A DNA stretch of 64,000 nt from a virus: UHGV virus genome UHGV-0351052. One strand, given 5' to 3'. Below, piece by piece: positions 7,471-18,064 of the stretch (position 1 is the first letter of the stretch; each line of letters opens with the position of its first letter). The notes under the pieces were generated by a model that saw nothing but the letters and a program-made list of their open reading frames with translations, ran no database searches and had not been told where the DNA came from. Both the position numbers and the translations under genes were made by a program.

Positions 7471-10400
7471 ATGGCCGAGATTAAAAGAAAGTTCAGAGCA
7501 GAAGATGGTCTGGACGCAGGTGGTGATAAAATAATCAACGTAGCTTTAGCTGATCGTACCGTAGGAACTGACGGTGTTAACGTTGATTACTTAATTCAAG
7601 AAAACACAGTTCAACAATATGATCCAACTCGTGGATATTTAAAAGATTTTGTAATCATTTATAATAATCGTTTTTGGGCAGCAACGGATGATATTCCAAA
7701 ACCTGCTGGAAATTTTAATAGAATTCGTTGGAAAGCATTACGTACTGATGCTGTATATACAACCGTATCATCTGGACCATATCAATTAAAATCCGGAGAA
7801 GCAATTTCAGTAGATACATCAGTTGGCAATGACATTGAGTTTAATTTACCACCTTCTCCTCTTGATGGAGAAACCGTAATAATTCAAGATATTGGTGGAA
7901 AACCTGGTATAAATCAGGTTAAAATAAATTCTTCAAATCAGAGTATTGTTAATTTTAGAGGTGAACAGGTACGTTCAGTTCTAATGACTCATCCAAAGTC
8001 ACAAATGATATTCATTTTTAATAATCGTTTGTGGCAAATGTATGTTGCTGATTATAGCAGAGAAGCTGCGATTGTTACTCCATCGACTGCATATCAAGCA
8101 CAATCTAATGATTTTATCGTGCGTAGATTTACTTCTGCTTCAGCAATTAATATTAAACTTCCAAGATTTGCTAATCATGGCGATATTATTAATTTCGTTG
8201 ATTTGGATAAATTAAATCCTCTTTATCACACAATTGTTACTACATATGATGAAACAACTTCAGTACAAGAAGTTGGAACTCATTCCATTGAAGGTCGTAC
8301 ATCGATTGACGGTTTCTTGATGTTTGATGATAATGAGAAATTGTGGAGATTGTTTGACGGGGATAGTAAAGCACGTTTACGCATTATAACAACTAATTCT
8401 AATATTCGTCCAAATGAAGAAGTCATGGTGTTTGGTGCGAATAATGGAGCAACCCAAACAATTGAACTTCAGCTTCCGACTGATATTTCTGTTGGTGATA
8501 CTGTTAAAATTTCTATGAATTACATGAGAAAAGGACAAACAGTTAAAATCAAAGCTGCAGGTGAAGATAAAATTGCTTCCTCAGTTCAATTGCTGCAATT
8601 CCCAAAACGTTCAGAATATCCACCTGAAGCTGAGTGGGTTACAGTTCAAGAATTAGTTTTTAACGGTGAAACTAATTATGTTCCAGTTTTGGAGCTTGCT
8701 TATATAGAAGATTCTGATGGAAAATATTGGGTTGTACAGCAAAACGTTCCAACCGTAGAAAGAGTAGATTCTTTAAATGATTCTACTAGAGCAAGATTAG
8801 GCGTAATTGCTTTAGCTACACAAGCTCAAGCTAACGTCGATTTAGAAAATTCTCCACAAAAAGAATTAGCAATTACTCCAGAAACATTAGCTAACCGTAC
8901 TGCTACAGAAACTCGTAGAGGTATCGCAAGAATAGCAACTACTGCTCAAGTAAATCAGAACACTACATTCTCTTTTGCTGATGACCTTATCATCACTCCT
9001 AAAAAACTGAATGAAAGAACTGCCACAGAAACTCGTAGAGGCGTTGCTGAAATTGCCACACAGCAAGAAACTAACGCAGGTACTGATGATACTGCAATCA
9101 TCACTCCTAAAAAGCTTCAAGCTCGACAAGGTTCTGAATCATTATCGGGTATTGTAACCTTTGTATCTACCGCAGGAGCTACTCCAGCTTCTAGTCGTGA
9201 ATTAAATGGTACAAACGTTTATAATAAAAACACTAATAATTTAGTTGTTTCGCCTAAAGCTCTGGATCAGTATAAAGCTACTCCAACACAACAAGGTGCA
9301 GTAATTTTAGCAGTTGAAAGTGAAGTAATTGCTGGGCAAAGCCAAGAAGGATGGGCAAATGCGGTTGTAACGCCAGAAACGTTACATAAAAAGACATCAA
9401 CTGATGGAAGAATTGGTTTAATTGAAATTGCTACGCAAAGTGAAGTTAATACAGGAACTGATTACACTCGTGCAGTCACTCCGAAAACTTTAAATGACCG
9501 TATAGCAACTGAAAGTTTAAGTGGTATAGCTGAAATTGCTACACAAGTTGAATTCGACGCAGGCGTCGACGATACTCGTATCTCTACACCATTAAAAATT
9601 AAAACCAGATTTAATAGTACTGATCGTACTTCTGTTGTTGCTCTATCTGGATTAGTTGAATCAGGAACTCTCTGGGACCATTATACCCTTAATATTCTTG
9701 AAGCAAACGAGGCACAACGTGGTACACTTCGTGTAGCTACACAAGTTGAAGCTGCTGCAGGAACATTAGATAATGTTTTGATAACTCCTAAAAAGCTTTT
9801 AGGTACTAAATCTACTGAAGCACAAGAAGGTGTTATTAAAGTTGCAACTCAGTCTGAAACTGTGACTGGAACGTCAGCAAATACTGCTGTATCTCCAAAA
9901 AATTTAAAATGGATTGTGCAGAGTGAACCTACTTGGGCAGCAACTACTCTGATAAGAGGGTTTGTTAAAACTTCATCTGGTTCAATTACATTCGTTGGTA
10001 ATGATACCGTTGGTTCAACGCAGTCATTAGAATTATACGAGAAAAATGGTTATGCAGTATCACCATATGAATTAAATCGCGTATTAGCAAATTATTTGCC
10101 ATTAAAAGCAAAAGCTGTAGATAGTAATTTATTAGATGGTCTAGATTCGCTCCAGTTCATTCGTAGGGACATTGCACAAACAGTTAATGGTTCACTAACC
10201 TTAACCCAACAAACGAATCTGAGTGCCCCTCTTGTATCATCTAGTACTGCTACATTCGGTGGATCAGTTTCAGCAAATAGTACATTAACTATTTCTAATA
10301 CTGGAACGGCAACTCGTCTGATTTTTGAGAAAGGACCTCAAACTGGAACAAACCCGGCTCAAACGATGACTGTCAGAGTGTGGGGAAATCAATTTAGTGG

Positions 10401-11340
10401 GGAATCAGACACAACACGTTCTACCGTATTTGAAGTTAGTGATGAAACGTCTAGTCATTTTTATTCTCAGCGTAATAAAGCTGGAAATATAACATTTAAT
10501 ATCAACGGTACAGTAACACCGATAAATGTTAATGCTTCAGGAACATTGAATGCAAATGGTGTAGCAACATTTGGTAATTCAGTCACTGCAACTGGTGAAA
10601 TTATTTCTCGAAGCGCAAATGCTTTCCGTGCTATTAACGGAAATTATGGTTTCATTATTCGTAATGACGGGTCAGTAACGAATTTTATGCTTACTGCATC
10701 AGGCAATCAAACTGGTGGATTTAATGGATTACGTCCATTGTCCATTAATAATCAATCTGGGCAGGTCACAATTGGTGAAAGCTTGATCATTGCTAAAGGT
10801 GCTACTATAAATTCAGGTGGTTTAACTGTTAACTCGAGAATTCGTTCTCAAGGTGTTAAAACATCTGATTTATATACTCGTGCGCCGACATCTGATACTG
10901 TAGGATTCTGGTCAATCGATATTAATGATTCAGCCACTTATAACCAGTTCCCGGGTTATTTTAAAATGGTTGAAAAAACTAATGAAGTTACTGGACTTCC
11001 ATACTTAGAACGTGGCGAAGAAGTTAAATCTCCTGGTACATTGACTCAGTTTGGTAACACACTTGATTCACTTTACCAAGATTGGATTACTTATCCAACG
11101 ACTCCAGAAGCACGTACCACTCGCTGGACACGTACATGGCAAAAAACTAAAAACTCTTGGTCAAGTTTTGTTCAGGTATTTGATGGAGGTAACCCTCCTC
11201 AACCTTCGGATATAGGAGCAATCCCATCTGATAATGGAATAATAGGTAATCTTACTATTCGTGATTTCTTACGAATTGGTAATGTTCGCATTATTCCTGA
11301 CCCAGTGAATAAAACTGTTAAATTTGAATGGGTTGAATAA
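7471..11340 (+). CDS. 34: long tail fibre proximal subunit gp34 (1289 aa)
   Basis: Length equals T4 gp34; internal repeated motif xTxxxRGxxxIATxxExxxGTD..TPKxL. Confidence 0.9.
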   Translation: MAEIKRKFRAEDGLDAGGDKIINVALADRTVGTDGVNVDYLIQENTVQQYDPTRGYLKDFVIIYNNRFWAATDDIPKPAGNFNRIRWKALRTDAVYTTVSSGPYQLKSGEAISVDTSVGNDIEFNLPPSPLDGETVIIQDIGGKPGINQVKINSSNQSIVNFRGEQVRSVLMTHPKSQMIFIFNNRLWQMYVADYSREAAIVTPSTAYQAQSNDFIVRRFTSASAINIKLPRFANHGDIINFVDLDKLNPLYHTIVTTYDETTSVQEVGTHSIEGRTSIDGFLMFDDNEKLWRLFDGDSKARLRIITTNSNIRPNEEVMVFGANNGATQTIELQLPTDISVGDTVKISMNYMRKGQTVKIKAAGEDKIASSVQLLQFPKRSEYPPEAEWVTVQELVFNGETNYVPVLELAYIEDSDGKYWVVQQNVPTVERVDSLNDSTRARLGVIALATQAQANVDLENSPQKELAITPETLANRTATETRRGIARIATTAQVNQNTTFSFADDLIITPKKLNERTATETRRGVAEIATQQETNAGTDDTAIITPKKLQARQGSESLSGIVTFVSTAGATPASSRELNGTNVYNKNTNNLVVSPKALDQYKATPTQQGAVILAVESEVIAGQSQEGWANAVVTPETLHKKTSTDGRIGLIEIATQSEVNTGTDYTRAVTPKTLNDRIATESLSGIAEIATQVEFDAGVDDTRISTPLKIKTRFNSTDRTSVVALSGLVESGTLWDHYTLNILEANEAQRGTLRVATQVEAAAGTLDNVLITPKKLLGTKSTEAQEGVIKVATQSETVTGTSANTAVSPKNLKWIVQSEPTWAATTLIRGFVKTSSGSITFVGNDTVGSTQSLELYEKNGYAVSPYELNRVLANYLPLKAKAVDSNLLDGLDSLQFIRRDIAQTVNGSLTLTQQTNLSAPLVSSSTATFGGSVSANSTLTISNTGTATRLIFEKGPQTGTNPAQTMTVRVWGNQFSGESDTTRSTVFEVSDETSSHFYSQRNKAGNITFNINGTVTPINVNASGTLNANGVATFGNSVTATGEIISRSANAFRAINGNYGFIIRNDGSVTNFMLTASGNQTGGFNGLRPLSINNQSGQVTIGESLIIAKGATINSGGLTVNSRIRSQGVKTSDLYTRAPTSDTVGFWSIDINDSATYNQFPGYFKMVEKTNEVTGLPYLERGEEVKSPGTLTQFGNTLDSLYQDWITYPTTPEARTTRWTRTWQKTKNSWSSFVQVFDGGNPPQPSDIGAIPSDNGIIGNLTIRDFLRIGNVRIIPDPVNKTVKFEWVE

Positions 11341-11351
11341 GAGGAGATATT

Positions 11352-12467
11352 ATGGAAAAATTTATGGCAGAGTTTGGACAGGGATATGTCCAAACGCCAT
11401 TTTTATCGGAAAGCAATTCAGTAAGATATAAAATAAGCATAGCGGGCTCTTGCCCGCTTTCTACTGCAGGGCCATATGTTAAATTTCAGGATAATCCCGT
11501 TGGAAATCAAACATTTAGTGCAGGTCTTCATTTAAGAGTTTTTGACCCTTCTACGGGAGCATTAGTTGATAGTAAGTCATATGCTTTTTCTGCTTCAAAC
11601 AATACAACATCTGCCGCTTTTGTCAGTTTCATGAATTCTTTGTCAAACAATAAACTTGTTGCTATATTAACTAGCGGAAAGGTTAATTTTCCTCCTGAAG
11701 TGGTATCTTGGTTAAGGAGAGCAGGAACTTCAGTTTTTCCATCAGATTCAGTATTGTCAAGATTTGACGTATCATATGCTGCTTTTTATACTTCTTCTAA
11801 AAGAGCTATCGCATTAGAGCATGTTAAACTAAGTAATAGAAAAAGCACAGATGACTATCAAACTATGCTAGATGTTGTATTTGATAGTTTAGAAGACGTT
11901 GGAGCGACAGGATTTCCAAAAAGAACTTATGAAAGCGTTGAACAATTTATGTCTGCGGTTGGAGGAACTAATAATGAAATTGCGCGATTGCCAACTTCAG
12001 CTGCTATAAGTAAACTTTCTGACTACAATTTAATTCCTGGTGATGTTCTTTATCTTAAAGCACAGTTATATGCTGATGCTGATTTACTTGATCTTGGAAC
12101 TGCAAATATATCTATTCGTTTTTATGATGCATCAAATGGATATATTTCCTCGACCCAAGCTGAGTTTACTGGGCAAGCTGGGTCTTGGGAATTAAAAGAA
12201 GATTATGTAGTTGTTCCTGAAAATGCAGTAGGATTTACGATATATGCACAAAGAACTGCCCAAGCAGGTCAAGGCGGCATGAGAAATTTAAGCTTTTCTG
12301 AAGTATCAAGAAATGGCGGAATTTCGAAACCTGCTGAATTTGGTGTCAATGGTATTCGTGTTAATTATATCGGTGAATCCTCTTCACCTCCAGATATAAT
12401 GGTACTTCCTACACAGGCATCGTCTAAAACTGGTAAAGTGTTTGGACAGGAATTTAGAGAAGTTTAA
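11352..12467 (+). CDS. 35: long tail fibre hinge protein gp35 (371 aa)
   Basis: Position and size between 34 and 36. Confidence 0.8.
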   Translation: MEKFMAEFGQGYVQTPFLSESNSVRYKISIAGSCPLSTAGPYVKFQDNPVGNQTFSAGLHLRVFDPSTGALVDSKSYAFSASNNTTSAAFVSFMNSLSNNKLVAILTSGKVNFPPEVVSWLRRAGTSVFPSDSVLSRFDVSYAAFYTSSKRAIALEHVKLSNRKSTDDYQTMLDVVFDSLEDVGATGFPKRTYESVEQFMSAVGGTNNEIARLPTSAAISKLSDYNLIPGDVLYLKAQLYADADLLDLGTANISIRFYDASNGYISSTQAEFTGQAGSWELKEDYVVVPENAVGFTIYAQRTAQAGQGGMRNLSFSEVSRNGGISKPAEFGVNGIRVNYIGESSSPPDIMVLPTQASSKTGKVFGQEFREV

Positions 12468-12529: not shown

Positions 12530-13180
12530 ATGGCTGATTTAAAAGTAGGTTCAACTGTAGGTGGATCTGTCATTTGGCATCAAGGAAATTTTCCGTTGAA
12601 TTCAGCCGGTGACGATGTACTCTACAAATCATTTAAAATATATTCAGAATATAATAAACCACAGGCATCTGATAATGATTTCGTTTCTAAATCTACTGGT
12701 GGTACTTACACTGGTCCAATTACTATTAATTACGGGGTAAATAGTTATCTTCAATTAAGTAATAATGAAACCCCAATTCGAATTCGTTCCGGTGGCGGTA
12801 CCGGTAATACTCTTGTAATTGGCGGCTCTTCTGGCGGTATTAGTTTTAGACCTGCGGGTAGTGAAATCACTACTGGACAAATTACTATTACGCCAGAAGG
12901 TTTGACAACATTTACTAGGGCTGTAACGGCTCCATCTGTAACTGTTACATCTACTCCTTCCGCAGCATCAGATGCTACTCGTAAAGATTATGTTGATGGA
13001 GCAATAAATACTGTTACAGCAAATGCAAACTCTAGGGTATTACGCTCTGGAGACACTATGACAGGAAATTTAACTGCGCCAAACCTTTTTTCACAGAATC
13101 CTGCATCTCAACCTTCACACGTTCCACGATTTGACCAAATCGTAATTAAGGATTCTGTTCAAGATTTCGGCTATTATTAA
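12530..13180 (+). CDS. 36: long tail fibre distal connector gp36 (216 aa)
   Basis: Position and size; [24 protein letters not shown]-terminus. Confidence 0.8.
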
Positions 13181-13188
13181 GAGGACTT

Positions 13189-16100
13189 ATGGCTACTTTA
13201 AAACAAATACAATTTAAAAGAAGCAAAACTGCAGGTCAACTTCCTGCTGCTTCAGTATTAGCCGAAGGTGAATTGGCTATTAATTTAAAAGATAAAACAA
13301 TTTTCACAAAAGATGACTCAGGCAATGTTATAGAATTAGGTTTAAAATATGGAGGAACAATTGATGGTTCTTTAACTGTTAATGGAAATATAATTGGAAA
13401 TTTAACAGGTAACGCTGCAACTGCAACGAAATTAAAAACAGCACGAAAAATTAATGGTATATCCTTTGATGGGTCAAAGGATATCACGCTAACTCCATCT
13501 GACATAAATGTCAATAGCACAACATTTATAAAAAATAATGGCGAATTACCTGTTGATGCTAATTTAGATGAGTATGGGCCTGTTGAAGAATATCTTGGAG
13601 TTTGGTCGAAAGCAACTTCAACCAACGCTCAACCAGCAAATAAATTTCCAGAACAAAATGCTGTAGGTGTGCTAGAAGTATTTGTGGCCGGTCAATTTGC
13701 TGGTACTCAGAGATATACAACTAGATACGGAAATGTTTATATTCGTTCCTTGACTGCTACATGGAACGGAGTAAATGGTCCGTGGAGTGTGTGGCGAAAT
13801 ATTCAATCCGGTACTCGTTCACTGTCAACAACAATTGATCTTAATGATCTAGGAGGCGCTGAACACTTGGGTTTGTGGCGAAATAGTTCAAATTCCATTG
13901 CTACCTTTGACAGAAATTTCCCAGAAGAAGGATCGTCAGCTCAAGGACTTTTAGAAGTATATGAAGGTGGAAACTATTCTCGCACACAGAGATATACGAC
14001 CAGATTTGGTGTTGTTTATACTCGCTGTCTTACTGCTGCGTGGGATGCTTCTGCGCCTAAATGGGGACCGTGGCAACAAGTCGGTAATGTCACACCAGCG
14101 ACTTTTTATGATGGAGATCTGAATGATTTTAAAACTCCTGGGTTATATAATATTTTAGGCACTGATGCCGTTATTAACTGTCCTACAGGTGAAGGTTTGC
14201 CGACTGTTATTGTTGGTTTGCTGGAAGTTAAACAGCGTGCTTCTGGCGGTGCTATTTTCCAAAAATTTACTACTGCCGGAACGGGTTCAACTACTCGCGA
14301 TCGTATTTTTGAGCGCGCATATACCGGCGGTGTTTGGGGTACATGGAACGAAGTATACACATCCTATTCTCTACCAATTACTTTGGGTATGGGCGGTATT
14401 AAATCTAACTTAGCTGAGTTAGACTGGCAAACCTTTGATTTTGTCCCTGGTAGTATGTTTAGTGTTCCTTTGAACAAAATAAAGAATATGCCAGCAAATA
14501 TGGATTGGGGTACGATTGACGGAAACTTGGTTATGTTTTCTGTCGGTCCTAGCGAACACACTAGCACAGGGCGTACTGTTCAGGTTTGGCGTGGTACTGT
14601 ATCCCAGACAAACTACCGTTATTTTGTCGTTCGTGTGTTCGGTAATTCTGGAAATAGAACTTGTACAGTTCGACGCGTTGTTCTTGAAGATGGTCGCCAC
14701 AAATGGACAGCGCAACAAGATTTTAATGGTGCAGTTAACTTCGGTGCTCCTACCAATTTTAACTCTACTGTTAACCTTAATAACACTACCACATTTAAAA
14801 CAGAAGTTAAATTCCGCTCATTGAATGCATTTAAAATGTATGGTGGTAATTTTGGTACAATTTTCCGTAATGATGGTGAAAGTCTTTATATTCTTTCCAC
14901 CAACGAAAATGATCAAGATGGAAACTTTAACACCAATAGACCTTTCCGGTATCAGTTTAGAACTGGTGATGTTACTTTGGGTGGAACTAGTGGTGCTAAT
15001 ATTTTAAGATTAAAAAGTAGTTCTCTTGCTGCTACCTTTGGTGGTGATGTTAACTTAAGTAAAGGTACATTGACGTTTGAGGCGGGTGGTAAGCAATCAC
15101 GAGATTACTTCCGGTTTAACCATTGGGGTGATAGCAATAACGCTCGTGATAACATTATTCAGTTAGAAGACAGCAAAGGCGCTCATTTTTCCACTGAACG
15201 TACTTTAGCGACAGGTGCAATTAAAACTCGTTTCTTTGGCGAAACATTCACTGATGGTACATTATACCTAAATCAGATGAATAATAGCTCTGAACGATTC
15301 TCTATCAACAATTGGGGAAATTCAGAAGCTGGACGCGCGGCAGTATTGGAAGTCGGCGATTCCAAAGGTTATCACTTCTATACGGAACGCAGGACAGATA
15401 ACAGTTTGATGTTTGATGTTGCTGGCGCTTTTACTGTGCATGGACCTTCCGGGATTACTATCAAAAACTCAGCTGGCGCACGCCATATCTGGTTTAGAGA
15501 TGATAGCGATGCAGAAAAGGCTGTTATCTGGGCTACAGATGATGGTCTTTTACATATACGAAATAATAATGGGGGTTCATTTAGTCATCACTTCCAGGGT
15601 GCAATGATTAAAGTGGGAGAGCGTGTTCCTTATGCCGGAGATCGAGGGCTTATTCGCGGTGAAGTTTCTGGTGGTGCTTATGTGGATTGGAGAGGCCGCC
15701 CTGCTGGTTTGTTGCTTGACTGTCAACAAAGCGTTAATAGTGCTCATGCTATTTGGAAAGCGGTTGATTGGGGGCGTAACTACATCGCTGCTCTGGACGT
15801 TCATTGTCCCGGCGATAGTAATAATACTGCAGCAGCGGTTCTCCATGTTCAGTCTGCTGATTATCAATTCCATGCAAATGGGAGCTTTGATGCCAGTGGC
15901 AACGGAAACTTTAACGATGTTTATATTCGATCAGACCGTCGCCTTAAAGACAATATAGAAGATTATACCGGAAATGCGTTAAGTTTGATTGGTAAACTGA
16001 AAGTGAAAACTTACGATAAAGTTAAATCTCTTAAGGACCGTGAAATTATCGGTCATGAGATCGGCATTATCGCACAGGATTTACAAGAAATATTACCAGA

Positions 16101-16284
16101 AGCGATTAATATTTCGAAAATTGGCAATCTTGATAAACCAGACGAAGTTCTGACAATTTCTAACTCTGCTGTGAATGCTCTTTTAATTAAGGCCATTCAG
16201 GAAATGAGTGAAGAAATTAAAGAATTGAAAACGCCTTTCTTCACTAAAATTGCTCGCAAAATTGGTAAATATTTTAAATTCTAA
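13189..16284 (+). CDS. 37: long tail fibre distal subunit gp37 (1031 aa), T2-type with C-terminal self-cleaving chaperone domain
   Basis: N-terminus [13 protein letters not shown] conserved with T4 gp37; remainder diverges and lacks the T4 His-rich needle tip. Confidence 0.85.
15931..16281 (+). other. intramolecular chaperone / autoproteolytic domain at gp37 C-terminus (about 117 aa)
   Basis: Begins [12 protein letters not shown]..., the S-D-x-R-x-K-x-N-I signature of peptidase S74-type domains; T2 gp37 is known to lose about 120 C-terminal residues. Confidence 0.55.
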
Positions 16285-16290
16285 CAACAA

Positions 16291-16309
16291 GGGGGAAATT
16301 TCCCCCTTT
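16291..16309 (+). terminator. hairpin GGGGGAAATTTCCCCC plus TTT after gene 37
   Basis: Perfect 6-bp GC-rich stem then a short T-run; probably a weak or attenuating terminator. Confidence 0.35.
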
Positions 16310-16321
16310 GGAGTATAAATT

Positions 16322-17104
16322 ATGGCAGTAGTTGGAGTTCCTGGCTGGATTGGAAGTTCAGCCGTAAATGAAACGGGACAGCGCTGGATGAGTCAAGCGG
16401 CTGGTCAACTAAGATTGGGTGTTCCTTGCTGGATGAGTCAATTTTCAGGTCGCTCGCGAGAAATTATTCATACACTTGGCGCAGACCATAACTTCAATGG
16501 TCAATGGTTCCGTGATAGATGCTTTGAGGCGGGTAGTACACCTATAGTGTTTAATATTACAGGTGATTTAGTATCATATTCTAAAGATGTTCCTTTATTC
16601 TTCATGTACGGGGATACACCTAATGAATATGTTCAGTTAAATATACACGGCGTAACGATGTATGGTCGTGGTGGTAATGGCGGTAGCAATGGTCCTGGCT
16701 CATCTGGTGGTCATTGTATTCAAAATGATATTGGTGGAAGACTAAGAATTAATAATGGAGGTGCTATCGCAGGCGGTGGCGGTGGTGGCGGTGGTGGGTA
16801 TTATTCTCCCACGAAACCAATGAAATTAACCTTTGGTGGTGGTGGCGGTCGTCCGTTTGGTGCTGCTGGTGGATCTGCCAACATGCAATCAGGCGCAACT
16901 GCTGGTACTCTTTATGCGCCTGGCGCAGGGTCTGTAAACGGTGTCTATAGCGGCGGTGGCGGTGGTGAGGTAGGCGCCGCAGGAGGTAGATGCAATATTC
17001 GCGGTCAAGGATCTGAATATAATGGCGGCGCTGCTGGTTATGCTGTCATAGGGTCCGCTCCAACATGGCAAAATGTTGGAGCAATATATGGTCCAAGAGT
17101 ATAA
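16322..17104 (+). CDS. 38: receptor-recognising adhesin gp38, T2/T6 type (260 aa, glycine-rich motifs)
   Basis: Poly-Gly motifs ([54 protein letters not shown]) separated by variable segments; T4 gp38 is a 183-aa non-Gly-rich chaperone. Confidence 0.75.
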
Positions 17105-17134: not shown

Positions 17135-17791
17135 ATGGCAGCACCTAGAATATCATTTTCGCCCTCTGATATTCTGTTGGGTGTTCTAGATCGCTTGTTC
17201 AAAGATAATGCTACCGGGAAAGTTCTTGCTTCCCGGGTAGCTGTCGTAATTCTTTTGTTTATAATGGCGATTGTTTGGTATAGGGGAGATAGTTTCTTTG
17301 AGTACTATAAGCAATCAAAGTATGAAACATACCGTGAAATTGTTGAAAAGGAAAGAAATGCACGCTTTGAATCTGTCGCCCTGGAACAACTCCAGATAGT
17401 TCATATATCATCTGAGGCAGACTTTAGTGCGGTGTATTCTTTCCGCCCTAAAAACTTAAACTATTTTGTTGATATTATAGCATATGAAGGAAGATTACCT
17501 TCAACAATAACTGAAAAATCACTTGGAGGATATCCTGTTGATAAAACTATGGATGAATATACAGTTCATTTAAATGGACGCCATTATTATTCCAACTCAA
17601 AATTTGCTTTTTTACCAACTAAAAAGCCTACTCCCGAAATAAACTACATGTACAGTTGTCCATATTTTAATTTGGATAATATCTATGCTGGAACAATAAC
17701 TATGTACTGGTATAGAAATGATCATATAAGTAATGACCGCCTTGAATCAATATGTGCTCAGGCGGCCAGAATATTAGGAAGGGCTAAATAA
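17135..17791 (+). CDS. t: holin (218 aa)
   Basis: Matches remembered T4 holin: single N-terminal transmembrane segment and large periplasmic domain. Confidence 0.9.
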   Translation: MAAPRISFSPSDILLGVLDRLFKDNATGKVLASRVAVVILLFIMAIVWYRGDSFFEYYKQSKYETYREIVEKERNARFESVALEQLQIVHISSEADFSAVYSFRPKNLNYFVDIIAYEGRLPSTITEKSLGGYPVDKTMDEYTVHLNGRHYYSNSKFAFLPTKKPTPEINYMYSCPYFNLDNIYAGTITMYWYRNDHISNDRLESICAQAARILGRAK

Positions 17792-18064
17792 TTATTTGTT
17801 CGTATACATCTCTAGATACCGATATACACCCTCAAAACCCTCGTTGAATTCGTCGATGAGGGTTTTCTTATCTTCTTGAGTTAATTCAGAAACAATTTTA
17901 CGGAATGAATTCTGATTTAACTTTCTACCTTCATGCGTTACTCCAATCTCATTCAGAAATGCAATAAAATTAGCACGATTCTCAACAATATCTTCTCTGG
18001 AAAATTTAATCAAAATAGACGCAACAGTAATAATTTCACGAACTGTATCAATATTTTTATTCAT
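17792..18064 (-). CDS. asiA: anti-sigma70 factor AsiA (90 aa)
   Basis: MNKNIDTVREIITVASILIKFSREDIVENRANFIAFLNEIGV... matches T4 AsiA. Confidence 0.9.
   Translation of the reverse strand: MNKNIDTVREIITVASILIKFSREDIVENRANFIAFLNEIGVTHEGRKLNQNSFRKIVSELTQEDKKTLIDEFNEGFEGVYRYLEMYTNK

Follow-up and report, generated by a model that had tools for sequence, protein, structure and literature searches.

An S74-type intramolecular chaperone domain at the C-terminus of the long tail fiber protein gp37 in virus genome UHGV-0351052

The window, i.e., the whole stretch of 64,000 nucleotides analyzed here, belongs to UHGV virus genome UHGV-0351052 and carries a block of T-even late genes in which gp37 is preceded by gp34, gp35 and gp36 and followed by gp38, holin t and asiA (Table 1). 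The locus is the same as in T4, and the N-terminal 66 residues of gp37 are homologous to those of T4 gp37, with an identity of 79%. Annotated homologues of the protein carry the name 'long tail fiber distal subunit'. Regarding known domains, Pfam matches within gp37 were obtained for Gp34_trimer (residues 521-587) and Peptidase_S74 (residues 915-972). The only other candidates for genes overlapping gp37 were two short out-of-frame ORFs at 15577-15873 (minus strand) and 15623-15958 (plus strand), which were discounted since all or nearly all of their length falls inside the reading frame of gp37.

Table 1. Features of the gp37 region in window coordinates; masses are computed.
Feature	Position	Strand	Remarks
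gp34	7471-11340		T-even late-gene block
gp35	11352-12467		T-even late-gene block
gp36	12530-13180		T-even late-gene block
gp37, long tail fiber distal subunit precursor	13189-16284	+	1031 aa, 113.1 kDa
Predicted mature gp37	13189-15930	+	aa 1-914, 99.8 kDa, end ...NFNDVYIR; from the position of Ser915 and reported cleavage sites
Predicted scissile bond Arg914-Ser915 with Ser915...Lys920 dyad (R^SDRRLK)	15928-15948	+	from conservation in relatives
Chaperone (Peptidase_S74) core	15931-16230	+	aa 915-1014; PF13884, PDB sequence matches, AlphaFold2 model, Foldseek
Cationic amphipathic C-terminal tail	16231-16281	+	aa 1015-1031, 17 residues; part of the predicted released fragment
gp38, T2/S16-type tail-fiber adhesin	16322-17104	+	260 aa
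holin t	17135-17791		T-even late-gene block
asiA	17792-18064	-	T-even late-gene block

The Gp34_trimer match lies within the shaft of gp37 (window 14749-14949, E=6e-14). The same profile is also matched by the gp37 proteins of T2 and T4, the latter falling just under the Pfam cut-off (25.5 vs 27 bits), which suggests a repeated module common to the proximal and distal half-fibers. A perfect 20-nt GC-rich palindrome (AAGGGGGAAATTTCCCCCTT) at 16289-16308 separates the stop codon of gp37 from the Shine-Dalgarno sequence of gp38 (GGAG, 16310-16313); folded as RNA, it yields a minimum free energy of -16.5 kcal/mol (z=-2.4). The hairpin was rejected as a canonical plus-strand terminator because no T-run follows it on its 3' side; it may serve as an mRNA stability element or influence the translation of gp38.

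The C-terminal end of gp37 had been singled out in the first-pass annotation, which placed the beginning of a domain of about 117 residues at position 15931. Codon 915 (TCA, Ser) indeed starts there and the TAA stop codon occupies 16282-16284, and the stretch 15931-16284 thus encodes exactly residues 915-1031 (117 residues) plus the stop. The accompanying proposal that the domain begins in the manner of peptidase S74 was borne out by the Pfam profile PF13884 (Peptidase_S74, 'chaperone of endosialidase'), which matched residues 915-972 with 59.0 bits (E=5.8e-16), far above the gathering cut-off of 22 bits. The match covers profile positions 1-56 of 58 and starts exactly at Ser915, with the catalytic dyad in register; a chance match is excluded. 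Ser915 and Lys920 of the motif SDRRLK show the spacing of the dyad (i, i+5) and correspond in the alignment to SDRRIK in Salmonella phage S16 and to SDERHK in GA-1.

Within an alignment of 12 relatives, S915, D916, R918, L919 and K920 are invariant. A word-indexed protein search retrieved only 18 relatives, most of them fragmentary, so that an exhaustive search of representative proteins was needed to capture the spread of the family. Run with HMMER over 1.84 billion protein representatives, the exhaustive search yielded 2062 relatives of the domain at E<=0.001. Of the 156 retrieved homologues that align from position 1, 155 combine a Ser in the first position with a Lys in the sixth, the single exception having Gln in place of Lys. 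The domain forms the extreme C-terminus of gp37, as it does in the homologues, in which a median of 5 residues remain after the match although the lengths of these proteins vary between about 100 and more than 5000 residues. Such a terminal position across protein lengths is the behavior that would be expected of a portable C-terminal module.

Comparison of the alignment profile with PDB sequences yielded matches to S16 gp37 (6f45, the gp37-gp38 structure reportedly described by Dunne et al. in 2018, cited in PMC7917993 and PMC6851490; E=1.7e-12) and to the intramolecular chaperone domain (ICA) of MyRF (7dc3; E=8e-8), as well as to the tail fiber 8jov and to 3gud, the neck appendage chaperone of GA-1, in which the aligned SDERHK opens the chain. 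A monomer model of gp37 residues 895-1031, built with AlphaFold2 from the shallow 12-sequence alignment, reached a pLDDT of 83-91 in the core and a mean pLDDT of 77. The model has a long terminal helix in addition to two short helices and four strands; this agrees with the S74 fold of 3GW6, 3GUD and 7DC3, in which a long C-terminal helix comes after short helices and beta-hairpins. In a Foldseek search against the PDB with this model, ranks 1-10 were all occupied by intramolecular-chaperone chains (7dc3, 3gw6, 3gud), the top match being the MyRF ICA (7dc3) with a TM score of 0.65 and E=3.5e-6. Profile, dyad, position and fold confirm that the last 117 residues of gp37 are a Peptidase_S74-type intramolecular chaperone domain.

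The gp38 encoded directly downstream is of the T2/S16 adhesin type, which is marked by GP38 and Gp38_N domains, glycine-rich motifs and three N-terminal tryptophans. It matches the Pfam families GP38 (E=6e-72) and Gp38_N (E=2e-20), has the three tryptophans (W9, W22 and W37, all invariant), and is 53% identical to T2 gp38. The N-terminal tryptophans of S16 gp38 insert into pockets of the gp37 tip (PMC7917993, PMC6851490), and gp38 sits in the virion on the cleaved gp37 tip in S16 and T2 (PMC7917993, PMC3157838, PMC6851490). By analogy, the gp38 of the window would likewise dock on a cleaved gp37 tip.

The eukaryotic homologue MyRF, the best structural match above, stands in an unrelated biological context: MyRF is a membrane-bound transcription factor, the cleavage of which frees a DNA-binding trimer. 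The endosialidase chaperone 3GW6, the C-terminal intramolecular chaperone of K1F endoNF and the prototype of the MEROPS/Pfam family S74, and its GA-1 counterpart share with the window domain the Pfam S74 membership, the fold-level match and the Ser-Lys dyad at i, i+5. Unlike the window domain, they belong to tailspikes or appendages instead of a long tail fiber, and their cleaved end has no adhesin cap; sequence identity in the fold alignments to these two chaperones is only about 12%.

The first-pass annotation had further held that T4 gp37 ends in a His-rich tip instead, and this agrees with what was found. T4 gp37 is without an S74 match; it contains Collar and Phage_fiber domains according to Pfam and seven HxH motifs at residues 883-998, whereas the gp37 of the window yielded no Pfam match to Collar or Phage_fiber, contains no HxH motif and does not show the T4-type tip of collar, iron-binding HxH needle and head domain. 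T4 gp37 is also paired with an unrelated, chaperone-type gp38. The T4 fiber is folded by separate chaperones (the chaperone-type gp38 and gp57A), and gp37 itself is the adhesin (PMC3157838, PMC6851490).

A close known system is offered by S16, in which the order of gp37 and an adhesin-type gp38 with three N-terminal tryptophans is the same and the C-terminal S74 domain has a similar length (113 vs 117 residues in the window) and the same SDRR[IL]K start. Differences concern the residues before the cleavage site (DLNVS vs DVYIR in the window), the basic tail, which S16 lacks, the remainder of gp37 and the variable loops of gp38. In a 2021 paper, the last 113 residues of S16 gp37 are described as an intramolecular chaperone that cuts itself off between the two serines of DLNVS^SDRRIKK and so uncovers the docking site of gp38 (PMC7917993). 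The same paper predicts cleavage of gp37 in the Tequatrovirus fPS phages at DVYIR^SDGRLK (PMC7917993). The two sites, DVYIR^SDGRLKI in the fPS phages and DVYIR^SDRRLKD in the window, are almost identical, and the same mechanism has already been proposed in print for the fPS phages (PMC7917993); the upstream shaft sequences of the fPS proteins are unlike that of the window, and the fPS cleavage is likewise a prediction.

A link to the reported processing of T2 gp37, also drawn in the first-pass annotation, holds as well. T2 gp37 (1341 residues) contains Peptidase_S74 at residues 1243-1300, with the start NVYIR^SDIRLK, and is followed by an adhesin-type gp38. Two reviews, with reference to Drexler et al. 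1986, state that the gp37 of T2 and T6 undergoes proteolytic cleavage at the C-terminus, after which gp38 caps it (PMC3157838, PMC13030884). A loss of about 120 residues from T2 gp37 was not confirmed by the T2 sequence, in which 99 residues (vs 117 in the window) extend from the serine of the predicted site to the end. The window does not represent T2 itself: gp37 is 1031 rather than 1341 residues long, and the chaperone domains are only 38% identical, so that the window is assigned to a different Tequatrovirus.

The reading that we consider very probable as an explanation of the whole is that gp37 is made as a precursor of 1031 residues, in which Ser915-Phe1031 would act as a C-terminal intramolecular chaperone. 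As in endosialidase, T5 pb1, S16 gp37 and GA-1, three chaperone domains would associate and, in the correct register, nucleate folding of the trimeric beta-helical fiber tip. After trimer formation, Ser915, activated by Lys920, would attack the Arg914-Ser915 peptide bond. The resulting 13-kDa fragment (computed mass 13.2 kDa) would leave, and the new C-terminus, ...NDVYIR, would form a flat tip of three chains. One gp38 could then insert its N-terminal helical bundle with the three tryptophans into this exposed tip, and the docked gp38 would set the receptor specificity. What we infer by homology is that autocleavage depends on trimer formation, which bond exactly is cut and in which order these events occur. 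The initial interpretation, a self-cleaving chaperone domain that bares the dock for gp38, is supported, and no finding contradicts it.

A true S74-type folding module might also be cut by a separate protease of host or phage instead of cutting itself, and such an external protease was reportedly an open possibility when the processing of T2 was first described. The Ser/Lys dyad is intact in gp37 and almost universally conserved, and the family prototype of S74 (Pfam/MEROPS) is an autoprotease; both points weigh against an external enzyme and make this variant very unlikely. The reviews of T2 and T6 leave room for it, in that they say only 'proteolytically cleaved' and name no enzyme (PMC13030884, PMC3157838), but autocleavage is what is described for the S16 homologue (PMC7917993). 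We regard it as extremely unlikely that the domain escapes cleavage and stays on the virion as a structural C-terminal cap, with gp38 binding elsewhere. No specific support was found for such a cap, which would be conceivable where the dyad has been lost, as in the one homologue with Gln for Lys; in the gp37 of the window the dyad is intact. The N-terminal bundle of S16 gp38 docks where the chaperone domain would sit (PMC7917993, PMC6851490), and T2 gp37 loses its C-terminus (PMC3157838).

The basic tail of 17 residues is unmatched in the characterized chaperone domains and, in a comparison of sequences, was absent from T2, KFS-EC and S16. With a helical hydrophobic moment of 0.67, it ranks among the top 0.7% of shuffles. 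It is near-identical in HP3.2 and P0002/P0003, despite an identity of only about 68-69% in the rest of the domain, and is strongly conserved in one Tequatrovirus sub-lineage. These properties would fit a second function of the released 13-kDa fragment exerted through the tail, e.g., membrane binding or the control or timing of gp38 loading, in which case the released trimeric fragment would not just be discarded. T2, S16 and KFS-EC use the same mechanism without the tail, however, its conservation may reflect recent recombination of the 3' end of gp37 together with the 5' end of gp38, and in structural terms it may be simply the end of a coiled-coil helix. A second function is accordingly given hardly any weight here, and autocleavage followed by docking of gp38 remains the preferred reading.

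As such, the S74 domain of gp37 is an ordinary feature that is already known from publications on close relatives. No new biology is claimed: S16 and T2 already establish the mechanism, and a published prediction extends it to a gp37 whose cleavage site is nearly identical. The main value of the present assignment lies in correct annotation and in engineering. Since the mature fiber is predicted to end at Arg914, recombinant gp37-gp38 receptor-binding constructs and host-range swaps must retain the chaperone domain for folding, and a gp37 product of approximately 100 kDa should be expected from such constructs.

Regarding the relatives of the window, no record in the phage collection was identical; over gp37-gp38, the best match was SHFML-26 (93.6%). 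HP3-like phages are about 96% identical over the replication genes. The 117-residue domain is 100% identical in PV654517.1. Compared with HP3.2, the last 44 or so residues of the domain differ at one position, and the first 70 have diverged; judged from this pattern, the chaperone domain encoded at 15931-16281 is a mosaic. Together with the low identity to the T2 domain, the mosaic structure shows that several domain subtypes circulate and recombine within Tequatrovirus.

A related domain occurs outside this genus in the Krischvirus KFS-EC (NC_055757.1, 1875-2576 of locus L004), the gp37 of which carries a chaperone domain with 75% identity to residues 1-100 of the 117 in the window. Downstream of KFS-EC gp37, two ORFs of 107 and 72 residues without a match to the Pfam family GP38 were found, i.e., no recognizable gp38 adhesin at that place. 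In HP3.2 (OP978391.1, 1843-2650 of locus L003), the annotated gp38 comprises only 216 residues, is devoid of Gp38_N and starts 157 nt after gp37; its start codon was probably mis-called in the record.
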